Translations under genes and position numbers: made by a program
Notes under the pieces: generated by a model
Told to the model about the DNA's origin: nothing
The model's database searches: none
The model's input: only the letters and a program-made list of their open reading frames with translations
IMG/VR virus record: IMGVR_UViG_2667527777_000009
Source of the DNA: a virus
Lineage: Duplodnaviria; Heunggongvirae; Uroviricota; Caudoviricetes
Length of the DNA: 16,079 nt
Reading direction: 5' to 3' (one strand)
Part shown: positions 6,941 through 7,221 of the stretch, piece by piece
Position numbering within the stretch: position 1 is the stretch's first letter
How the letters are laid out: each line of letters starts with the position of its first letter

Positions 6941-6968
6941 AGCCGGAGCAATCCGGCTTTTTGTTATT
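6941..6968 (+). terminator. Intrinsic terminator, second exact copy of the 6578-6601 hairpin
   Basis: Identical 23-nt CAGCCGGAGCAATCCGGCTTTTT at 6577-6599 and 6940-6962. Confidence 0.7.
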
Positions 6969-7083
6969 TTTTGTAAATTATTTGTTCGTGGTTGTTCCAC
7001 GTTGTTCACTGAGCGGATCGGCATATTTTACCCGAACTGAATCATGATTATTCTCGCCCGTGGTGCCAGGACGCTGGGGCCAC

Positions 7084-7131
7084 TTTCCCGCCTGTTAATG
7101 TGCTCGCCAATATTCATTACCAGGCGGGAAA
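7084..7131. promoter_or_regulatory. 11-bp perfect inverted repeat TTTCCCGCCTG-N26-CAGGCGGGAAA upstream of capsid operon
   Basis: Seen directly; no T-run on either side, so not a simple terminator. Confidence 0.4.
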
Positions 7132-7184
7132 ACGATCGGTGCGATTACTGATTTCCTTATGAAAAACGGTTGAGTGTTTGCCGC

Positions 7185-7221
7185 GTCCTGGAGTTCCTTA
7201 CTTAACCCCAGGACTTTTTTT
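7185..7221 (+). terminator. Terminator-like hairpin (GTCCTGG ... CCAGGAC + T7) abutting the capsid gene ATG
   Basis: 7-bp stem, 16-nt loop, TTTTTTT at 7215-7221, ATG at 7222; no Shine-Dalgarno in between. Confidence 0.45.

Follow-up and report, generated by a model that had tools for sequence, protein, structure and literature searches.

In phage lambda, the late operon follows a short leader that ends in an intrinsic terminator (the pR'-qut-6S RNA-tR' arrangement), and the lambda 6S RNA is 194 nt long. Attenuators of the trp type are built from four RNA segments, such that pairing of 1 with 2 and of 3 with 4 excludes pairing of 2 with 3. The cf-PICIs, a capsid-forming class of phage-inducible chromosomal islands, are recently recognised, widespread satellites that cross species by borrowing tails; the family has been defined, and EDL933 carries its prototype, EcCIEDL933 (10.1101/2022.09.08.507074). 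Knowledge of how these islands control their capsids amounts so far to a requirement for alpA, as cf-PICIs need their own copy for induction (10.1101/2022.09.08.507074), and to the production of some capsids, at an appreciable level, without an inducing helper (10.1101/2025.02.11.637232). No description of the regulation of the cf-PICI packaging operon was found in the literature searched. Here we analyse the virus record IMGVR_UViG_2667527777_000009, a DNA stretch of 16,079 nt (hereafter the window, meaning this whole stretch, whose coordinates are used unless another island is named), and the region that precedes its capsid gene. The window is, by its gene content, a cf-PICI of the EcCIEDL933 type. 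From comparative sequence evidence we judge with moderate confidence that the region comprises the promoter and 5' leader of the capsid/packaging operon, and that it acts as a self-contained co-transcriptional attenuator (Table 1).

Relatives were gathered in three steps, comprising genomes of Shigella, Rosenbergiella, Citrobacter, Erwinia and Gilliamella followed by two rounds that brought in 160 viral contigs, and ~170 related islands were compared in all (individual islands carry L numbers). Of the first 88 related leaders examined, 68 have the leader element, as do most of the 80 fetched later; its carriers include E. coli, Shigella, Citrobacter, Erwinia and Rosenbergiella genomes as well as many viral contigs. 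The capsid control region is 95-99% identical in ~360 E. coli genomes detected by BLAST, the leader of EDL933 being 97% identical, and the nearest relative found is a Shigella flexneri island (L003; 99% identity). When the phage database was searched by BLAST, the window leader gave zero matches, and a leader of the majority type matched only records of cf-PICI size (15-16.5 kb). The element was not found in true phages in the phage database searches, and the capsids of true phages are at most 40% identical. Thus, promoter and leader together appear to form an element that is conserved across this satellite family and has not been described previously.

Several lines of evidence indicate that the leader is a structured RNA whose main hairpins we term H1, H2 and H5. 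Folding of the window leader yields z = -6.0 relative to shuffled controls. RNAalifold recovers H1, the base of H2 and H5 de novo from 19 non-redundant leaders, with compensatory changes in 15 of 30 pairs, and this result agrees with a pair test on 47 sequences aligned to the model, in which 95.4% of cells pair (35-47% with slid partners), double changes occur in 17 pairs and none of 500 shuffles reaches the score. Searched with a covariance model of the 19-leader alignment, the 96 sources yield exactly one strong hit for each island, always on the plus strand and directly upstream of the capsid gene, with scores of 30-169 bits compared with at most 19.5 bits on the reverse strand. G-U pairs are frequent in the helices (one position, for example, is CG in 15, UG in 14 and UA in 13 sequences). 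Because G-U pairs would be mismatches on the other strand and the scores are strand-asymmetric, the covariation indicates that the structure is a plus-strand RNA and not a DNA palindrome.

The individual hairpins differ in what they conserve. H1 has the sequence GUGGCACUCAGACGUGAGCCGCCAC in most lineages, unchanged even where capsids are just 64-76% identical, and its variants retain pairing (AUGGC/GCCAU, GUGAC/GUCAC, CUCC/GGAG and, in the window, CCAG/CUGG). H2 corresponds to an 11-bp inverted repeat noted in a preliminary description of this DNA. That repeat is exact at 7084-7094 and 7121-7131, and it extends to 17-nt arms (7084-7100 and 7115-7131) that are 94% complementary around a 14-nt loop. 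Unrelated sequences at this position in other lineages still pair, with double changes in seven of nine pairs. Some islands have a short leader that lacks both H1 and H2. The lineage-specific insert of the window includes a mini-ORF, ATG AAA AAC GGT TGA (7159-7173, stop codon 7171-7173), that lies in frame with and immediately before a GTG at 7174 and is not conserved in other lineages. Rfam searches returned no match in the window at E <= 0.1, only chance-level hits in the region at permissive E-values, and no leader match at the gathering score in seven related loci.

The feature that suggests a switch is a second pairing available to H1. The apex and 3' side of this hairpin (7066-7074) are complementary over 9 bp to the 5' arm of H5 (7183-7191), so that the alternative helix would be mutually exclusive with the terminator. 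A perfect complement of at least 7 nt, located 33-40 nt before the ATG, is found in each of the first 67 leaders with H1 that were examined, in four versions (Table 1). In a pair test on this helix, 81.4% of cells pair, compared with 24-47% when partners are slid, and the column next to the loop is UA in 36, CG in eight and GC in two sequences and unpaired in none. Furthermore, two independent changes of the loop from GACG to GGCG maintain pairing with CGUC through G-U. The alternative helix thus appears to be conserved by covariation. Folding of transcript prefixes gives a consistent picture: as long as synthesis has got no further than the 5' arm of H5, the lowest-energy structure is the alternative pairing, by a margin of 1-2.4 kcal/mol. 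With the 3' arm present, H1 plus H5 leads by 4-10 kcal/mol, and for the complete closed fold the advantage is 10 kcal/mol in the window and 4.5 kcal/mol in L004. The same energetic pattern is obtained for these two leaders despite their different sequences.

The hairpin and seven-residue T-run reported to abut the start codon are indeed present, with arms at 7185-7195 and 7204-7214, the T-run at 7215-7221 and the ATG at 7222. The 11-nt arms are 91% complementary and enclose an 8-nt loop, and the calculated stability of -14.1 kcal/mol is at least as great as that of two terminators in the upstream operon (-12.6 and -12.7 kcal/mol). A built-in terminator scan missed H5 solely because of an internal mismatch. 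A stable, G+C-rich hairpin followed directly by a U-tract of at least six residues is what defines intrinsic terminators at the sequence level, and by every sequence property H5 with its U7 is predicted to be one. The same hairpin also buries a ribosome-binding site. The preliminary description saw no Shine-Dalgarno (SD) sequence, but AGGA is found at 7210-7213, 8 nt before the ATG and within the 3' arm of H5. The combination of ATG-abutting hairpin and T-run is confined to the EcCIEDL933-like lineage, where it is kept in 14 of 14 distinct leader variants. Other H1-containing lineages have a homologous hairpin (GGUUUCACGU...ACGGAAACC) that lacks the T-run and still buries a GGA SD. Termination before the capsid gene is therefore predicted for the window lineage and does not hold as a conserved principle, the T-run being lineage-specific. 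These comparisons suggest that a shared RNA platform controls translation in most lineages, and both transcription and translation in the window lineage.

A standard sigma-70 scan of the region called no promoter. Nonetheless, alignment of 48 non-redundant leaders on H1 reveals a fixed register of a -35 element, 16 nt, TAnnnT, 5 nt and H1. Positions T1, A2 and T6 of the -10 hexamer are invariant in all 48 (TATCTT, TATGTT, TATATT and others). The -35 position is occupied by TTTAC(T/A/C) in 25 leaders and by the T-tract of an early terminator in the other 23, as many lineages other than that of the window have a canonical terminator between the array described below and the promoter. In L006, the gene upstream of the leader is on the opposite strand, and therefore a promoter must lie in the leader interval. 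We predict a weak, sigma-70-type promoter for the capsid operon at 7027-7054, with transcription probably starting near 7060-7062 at the base of H1. A reading of TGGCAC in H1 as a sigma-54 element was rejected, by inspection only, for its unfit GG-to-GC spacing.

Upstream of the promoter lies the 15-mer TTGTTCCACGTTGTT, which recurs exactly at 6992-7006 and 14486-14500, as had been noted. Two near-copies with two mismatches are present on the minus strand at 1278-1312, giving four matches where 0.04 are expected, a number that none of 200 shuffles reaches. The 15-mer is part of a larger pattern of TTGTT(C/G/T) units phased at 10 bp (eight matches, 1.05 expected, 0 of 200 shuffles). In islands at the phoQ-adjacent, tqsA and yifB sites, one such array precedes int and another the capsid promoter, a third lies on the minus strand between int and alpA, and a fourth is carried by the right att arm. 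Both att arms thus carry phased direct repeats, at 14476-14500 on the right and, in L001, L002 and L003, upstream of int on the left; the position of the right-arm array is also occupied in these three islands despite their different host flanks. Mosaic islands whose Int is at least 65% identical have the att-arm arrays and those with an Int of 42-47% identity lack them, and the leader copy remains with the capsid module in either case. Because the arrays recur on the att arms and between int and alpA, and because the att-arm copies track the Int clade, we presume that the leader array is a protein-binding site of the integration/excision-module type. The earlier suggestion that the 15-mer is a late-promoter motif read by a helper does not fit this distribution. 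We lean slightly towards the integrase arm-binding domain over AlpA as the putative binder, even though the two are not separable here, the integrases of the window, L001 and L002 all being 84-89% identical. In EcCICFT073, AlpA activates its own promoter and downstream genes, and no binding site was defined (PMC6092414). Located at -79 to -54, the array is placed as an activator site might be.

Conservation of the control region begins abruptly at TTTGTAAAT, the core of an upstream box that hardly varies among 71 non-redundant leaders. For the surrounding kilobase, BLAST alignments are interrupted at 6936-6969, with junctions at 6969, and therefore the upstream and capsid modules are, on this evidence, units that recombine independently. 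In the divergent E. coli island L002, just 39 bp are alignable by BLAST, and these carry TTTTGTAAATTAT and the TTGTTC array. The hairpin proper of the terminator that precedes the box spans 6941-6958 and coincides with the recombination junction between the modules; it is placed so that it insulates the capsid control region, to judge from its sequence. Readthrough from the upstream small-ORF operon thus appears unlikely, because of this terminator and because a conserved promoter belongs to the leader itself. Two copies of one terminator hairpin (AGCCGGAGCAATCCGGCT plus T-run), at 6578-6595 and 6941-6958, flank a 100-aa ORF (6619-6921); their flanks share no further similarity. The ORF itself (phrog_1957) was considered as a regulator and rejected: islands lacking H1 have it too, it does not adjoin the leader in every case, and it belongs to no informative family.

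Table 1. Features of the capsid control region and related elements of the window, with the versions of the proposed switch helix
Feature	Position	Strand	Remarks
Intrinsic terminator closing the upstream small-ORF operon	6941..6965	+	hairpin AGCCGGAGCAATCCGGCT + T-run; -12.6 kcal/mol
Upstream element TTTTGTAAATTAT	6969..6981	+	left edge of conserved capsid module; ~-92 to -80 from predicted start
TTGTTC array, 3 units at 10-bp phase	6982..7007	+	contains the 15-mer; ~-79 to -54; kept where flanks diverge
Predicted sigma-70-type promoter	7027..7054	+	-35 TTTACC 7027-7032, 16-nt spacer, -10 TATTCT 7049-7054; fixed-register conservation
P0, 5' strand	7045..7057	+	complementary to capsid codons 2-5; overlaps -10
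H1, 5'-terminal hairpin, GACG loop	7060..7083	+	apex/3' side 7066-7074 = CCAGGACGC, putative switch strand; covariation
H2, long hairpin abutting H1 (the inverted repeat)	7084..7131	+	position conserved, sequence free
Lineage-specific insert	7134..7183	+	two small predicted hairpins + 4-codon mini-ORF; absent in other lineages
H5, predicted terminator and SD-sequestering hairpin	7183..7221	+	hairpin 7185-7214 + U7 7215-7221; 5' arm 7183-7191 GCGTCCTGG
Capsid start codon and P0 3' strand	7222..7236	+	P0 3' strand 7225-7236
Second TTGTT array, 3 units	14476..14500	+	exact 15-mer; right att arm, ~110-140 bp from attR core
Third TTGTT(C/G) array, ~5 units at 10-bp phase	1287..1333	-	int-alpA spacer
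Switch pair, window	7066-7074 / 7183-7191		H1 apex CCAGGACGC; H5 5' arm GCGUCCUGG
Switch pair, majority lineage			H1 apex AGACGUGA; H5 5' arm UCACGUCU
Switch pair, L002 type			H1 apex GACGUGA; H5 5' arm UCACGUC
Switch pair, L073 type			H1 apex GACGGGA; H5 5' arm UCCCGUC

Taken together, these features suggest the following mode of action. On the DNA, the order would be terminator (6941-6958), family-wide box (6969-6981), array of three TTGTTC units (6982-7007), weak promoter and a start near 7060. The ~160-nt leader would fold into H1, H2, the lineage insert and H5, with H5 serving as terminator through U7 and holding the SD sequence AGGA buried. Pairing of the H1 apex with the 5' arm of H5 would block both termination and SD sequestration. 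This alternative pairing would have a slight advantage only briefly, until the polymerase has produced the 3' arm of H5, after which H1 and H5 would be much more stable. The attenuator would thereby set the number of polymerases, and then of ribosomes, that enter the capsid gene, with the closed state as the default end state. The switch could be biased by stabilising or opening the nearly invariant H1, or by the speed of the polymerase. In addition, promoter activity would be linked to the state of excision or induction by a protein bound to the array, ~54-79 bp upstream of the start. A further and more tentative proposal, which we regard as possible rather than probable, is that H1 and its covarying partner in H5 are the sensor of a new, satellite-specific class of riboregulator, with H1 read by a factor from the helper, the island or the host or by the polymerase itself, and that the array adds a coupling of excision to capsid transcription.

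Transcripts that enter the region from upstream could be subject to another structure. The strand at 7045-7057 can pair with codons 2-5 of the capsid gene (P0 in Table 1), and because this strand overlaps the -10 element, P0 would form only in RNAs that read in from upstream; such RNAs would be held in a fold-back block. P0 has 12 bp in intact relatives, a length equalled in 3-12 of 200 control windows. In short-leader lineages it is better, with 14 bp and one compensatory change. P0 was rejected as a universal feature, since in the majority lineage it is not significant and reflects mere T-rich against A-rich sequence. A reading of the TTTTTCATG box as a transcribed anti-start strand, for which the start would have to lie upstream of the box, was dropped as the general model after the register-fixed -35/-10 profile had been established, and is retained solely in the form of the fold-back block of read-through RNAs.

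A number of observations weigh against the attenuator as proposed. Covariation and energetics are the evidence for the putative H1-H5 switch, and the covariation comes from few independent lineages (the window, L073 and L002 types) together with the two wobble changes. The 47-sequence alignment was fitted to the nested structure of the model, which flatters the pair counts of the nested helices. No sensor was found in the leader or among the island genes: the mini-ORF is not conserved, Rfam gives no aptamer match, the small island ORFs have no informative family, and for the invariant H1, a candidate site for a protein or the polymerase, no partner was found. The promoter of the window matches only eight of 12 consensus positions, just below the threshold of the standard scan. 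Support for P0 is marginal in the window lineage and absent in the majority lineage. The same TTGTTC leader array is present in mosaics L028 and L032; Int and AlpA of these islands are only 42-66% identical and there is no TTGTT on their att arms, so that a cognate binder is not always present. Finally, the capsid gene of the window contains a nonsense codon (see below), so that its copy of the element may lack current selection.

The preliminary description proposed that the head operon is kept silent by termination until a late activator or antiterminator arrives from a helper. The part of this view that survives is a dedicated control unit with a predicted terminator at the left edge of the capsid module, conserved across genera; a helper-encoded activator or antiterminator is unsupported, and none is needed, because the RNA appears to carry its own covarying antiterminator pairing between the H1 apex and the 5' arm of H5. 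Strict helper-dependent silencing also fits poorly with the need for the island's own alpA (10.1101/2022.09.08.507074) and with helper-free capsids (10.1101/2025.02.11.637232). In a broader form, the terminator could silence the operon until any trans-acting factor arrives, either encoded by a helper or a Q-like island protein loaded at the TTGTTC array. A strong terminator does stand between promoter region and ATG, the layout of direct repeats close to a promoter with a terminator beyond it is similar to that of Q/qut systems, Pseudomonas has a DNA-loaded antiterminator in its AlpA (PMC7969949, PMC9371919), and helpers induce these islands through alpA (PMC6092414; 10.1101/2022.09.08.507074). 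However, the Pseudomonas protein has more than 140 residues, eight helices and a Q-like fold with DNA-contact residues up to position 142 (PMC9371919), whereas the AlpA of the island is a 62-aa protein of family PF05930. As the families differ and share the name alone, the name does not carry the mechanism over, and we rejected the island AlpA as an antiterminator of the Pseudomonas type (PMC9371919, PMC7969949). Pfam and PHROG scans found no member of the Q family and no Q-like ORF in the island, the array lies at -79 to -54 and not between or next to the promoter hexamers, and the T-run is absent from most relatives. With capsids made without an inducing helper (10.1101/2025.02.11.637232) and a covarying antiterminator in the RNA itself, we consider a trans-acting antiterminator unlikely. 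The nearly invariant H1 would also be expected of a polymerase-binding surface, and H1 and H2 might act as a put-like RNA that binds the transcribing polymerase and carries it through H5-U7 and later hairpins such as that at 8389-8410. The two hairpins abut without a linker, total 72 nt and begin at the predicted start, much as HK022 putL has two stem-loops in ~70 nt and starts at +3 of its transcript (PMC9378689); terminator-like hairpins lie downstream, and phages of the HK022 type give tails to these islands (10.1101/2025.02.11.637232). Homology to HK022 put was rejected, however, as a search of the complete HK022 genome with the leader covariance model gives nothing at E <= 1. H2 is wholly unconstrained in sequence, short-leader islands lack both hairpins, and the covarying H1:H5 complementarity would have no role in the put mechanism. 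A put-like function is thus distinctly doubtful.

Control might instead be mainly translational and autogenous, with termination a late addition: a protein (capsid, terminase or a host RNA-binding protein) would lock the closed fold via H1 and so provide feedback. Consistent with this, the last hairpin of most lineages has no T-run and yet buries a GGA or AGGA SD, the exact sequence of H1 is conserved beyond pairing, H1 plus H5, the closed fold, is thermodynamically the most stable state, and in some relatives a gene for a ProQ/FinO-domain RNA chaperone lies immediately before the leader. On the other hand, no binding protein was identified and no gene co-occurs specifically with H1 among the islands compared, and the strict conservation of U7 in the window lineage argues that termination matters; autogenous control therefore seems improbable as the main mechanism. 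Least of all do we expect that the elements act as DNA, whether as operators, cruciforms, cos, ori or relic att sites, with the 15-mers marking the ends of a once-separate packaging cassette. The att arms do have further copies of the 15-mer and array, recombination moves the capsid module as one piece from 6969, and H1 and the 5' arm of H5 are readable as inverted copies of one DNA site. The frequent G-U pairs, which are A-C mismatches on the other strand, and the strand-asymmetric model scores speak against such a role, which is very improbable. H2 also retains pairing with unrelated sequences, unlike a protein site, and the packaging module has no integrase of its own. HK97-type synteny would place cos between HNH (10832-11272) and terS (11517-11882); a cos or ori at the capsid leader was ruled out on the basis of this synteny and the RNA-type covariation. 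Weighing these points, we favour the co-transcriptional attenuator.

The remainder of the island is consistent with its assignment. The window encodes a P4-type integrase (1-1230) and a 62-aa AlpA (1605-1793; PF05930 by Pfam scan), followed by a D5-type primase (3767-5515) and several small ORFs. Its head and packaging module is complete (capsid, S78 protease, portal, head-completion and connector proteins, HNH, TerS and TerL). Tail genes are lacking among the ORFs of the window, which has phoQ at its right edge. Integrase, alpA, pri-rep, a full head/packaging module, the lack of tail genes and a size of ~15 kb are the hallmarks of a cf-PICI, and the annotation of the near-identical island L001 fits as well. 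The capsid gene of the window is split by an in-frame TGA at 8047-8049 (TGG in the intact L001) into 7222-8049 and 8050-8379, and the same TGA is present in the Shigella flexneri island L003. The window copy thus probably does not produce capsids. Between the capsid stop and the protease start lies a strong 9-bp hairpin (GAAGGGGCT...AGCCCCTTT; 8389-8410) with a weak T-tail; by terminating part of the transcripts or by stabilising the mRNA, it may determine how much capsid is made relative to the downstream proteins. The divergent E. coli cf-PICI L002 encodes a ProQ/FinO-domain RNA chaperone (8191-8721) and an SSB just upstream of its capsid leader; the chaperone is a hint that some members of the family are regulated at the RNA level. 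A C4 antisense RNA (Rfam RF01695, the family of P1 c4 and P4 CI immunity RNAs) is found near the right end of L006 (16256-16342) and L049 (15796-15881). Several islands encode Icd-like proteins, and Icd is the kind of target that is controlled by c4 in P1. Antisense control of the C4/CI type was rejected for the window, as an Rfam search detects the C4 RNA in L006 and L049 and none in the window. Pasteurella Pmp8 was considered as a distant comparison and set aside, since its gene order differs and it lacks the leader.

Other observations concern the integration/excision module. Comparison of L001 (3366-19009) with the window shows that integrases 84-89% identical to each other have inserted near-identical islands at the tqsA, yifB and phoQ-downstream sites, so that the integrase clade appears to be flexible in its choice of target. 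A likely attR core, GGACATATTT, at ~14608-14617 overlaps the 3' end of phoQ, and a perfect palindrome (CAGTATGCGCATACTG) is found at 1249-1264, just past the int stop codon. A second direct repeat, GGTGTAGTYAA in two copies, occurs only beside att ends (14519-14541 in the window, upstream of int in L001, L002 and L003) and is probably the site of the other recombination protein. The spacers of other int/alpA modules carry their own 10-bp-phased arrays of GATATT or GTTCAT (L025 and L030, 1292-1317; L062, ~1898; L071, 986-1004), such that each int/alpA module seems to have its own recognition motif.

If the riboregulator and the array act as proposed, they would explain the timing of capsid synthesis in cf-PICIs and the helper-free leak of tail-less capsids. 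The analysis offers a concrete and testable control element, in the form of a conserved promoter and a ~160-nt leader RNA with a putative covarying switch, through which a satellite's decision to build capsids becomes directly approachable. The binding array, presumably of a recombination module, would be re-used upstream of a structural-gene promoter, and the same RNA platform would serve sister lineages in two ways, terminating transcription in one and hiding the SD in the other.

Comparison with known systems places the leader between several of them. Like the lambda late leader, it precedes a late (head) operon, is short, ends in an intrinsic terminator and has putative protein-binding repeats near its promoter, and the predicted terminated RNA of ~160 nt would be the counterpart of lambda 6S RNA. 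It differs from Q-type switches, including Pseudomonas AlpA, in that the island has no Q-like protein, the repeats are upstream of the -35 element and the antiterminator is apparently built into the RNA. H1 and H2 resemble HK022 put as two abutting stem-loops of ~70 nt at the predicted 5' end with terminators downstream (PMC9378689), but no similarity in sequence or structure was detected, H2 is hypervariable, and a local alternative pairing with the terminator is predicted. The TTGTTC arrays resemble the arm-type, Xis or RDF (recombination directionality factor) arrays of lambda-like attP sites in being head-to-tail, 10-bp-phased units on both att arms that track the integrase clade. Unlike in those sites, one array is located 7 kb from either att site and upstream of a structural-gene promoter. 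We know of no classical system in which an att-type array has this position. Fold-back inhibition of this kind is reportedly used by IS10 to block translation of transposase in read-through transcripts (Davis, Simons and Kleckner 1985). As in IS10, sequence just upstream of the element's own start (7045-7057) complements the translation start region (7225-7236), and only transcripts entering from outside would be blocked; in contrast to IS10, P0 spans ~170 nt and its statistical support is marginal.

The closest parallel is with attenuators of the trp type. The four segments would be the 5' strand of H1, the apex and 3' strand of H1, the 5' arm of H5, and the 3' arm of H5 with the U-tract. As in trp-type leaders, the 1:2 plus 3:4 fold would compete with an exclusive 2:3 pairing, which is favoured just transiently during synthesis. 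The leader differs from classical attenuators in having no evident leader peptide, tRNA, metabolite aptamer or known protein sensor, and in the distance of ~110 nt between segments 2 and 3, which are separated by a long hairpin in a leader that has no Rfam match. Finally, the leader resembles riboswitch families in the manner in which sister lineages appear to use one platform, transcriptionally where a U-tract follows the last hairpin and translationally where the SD sequence alone is buried.

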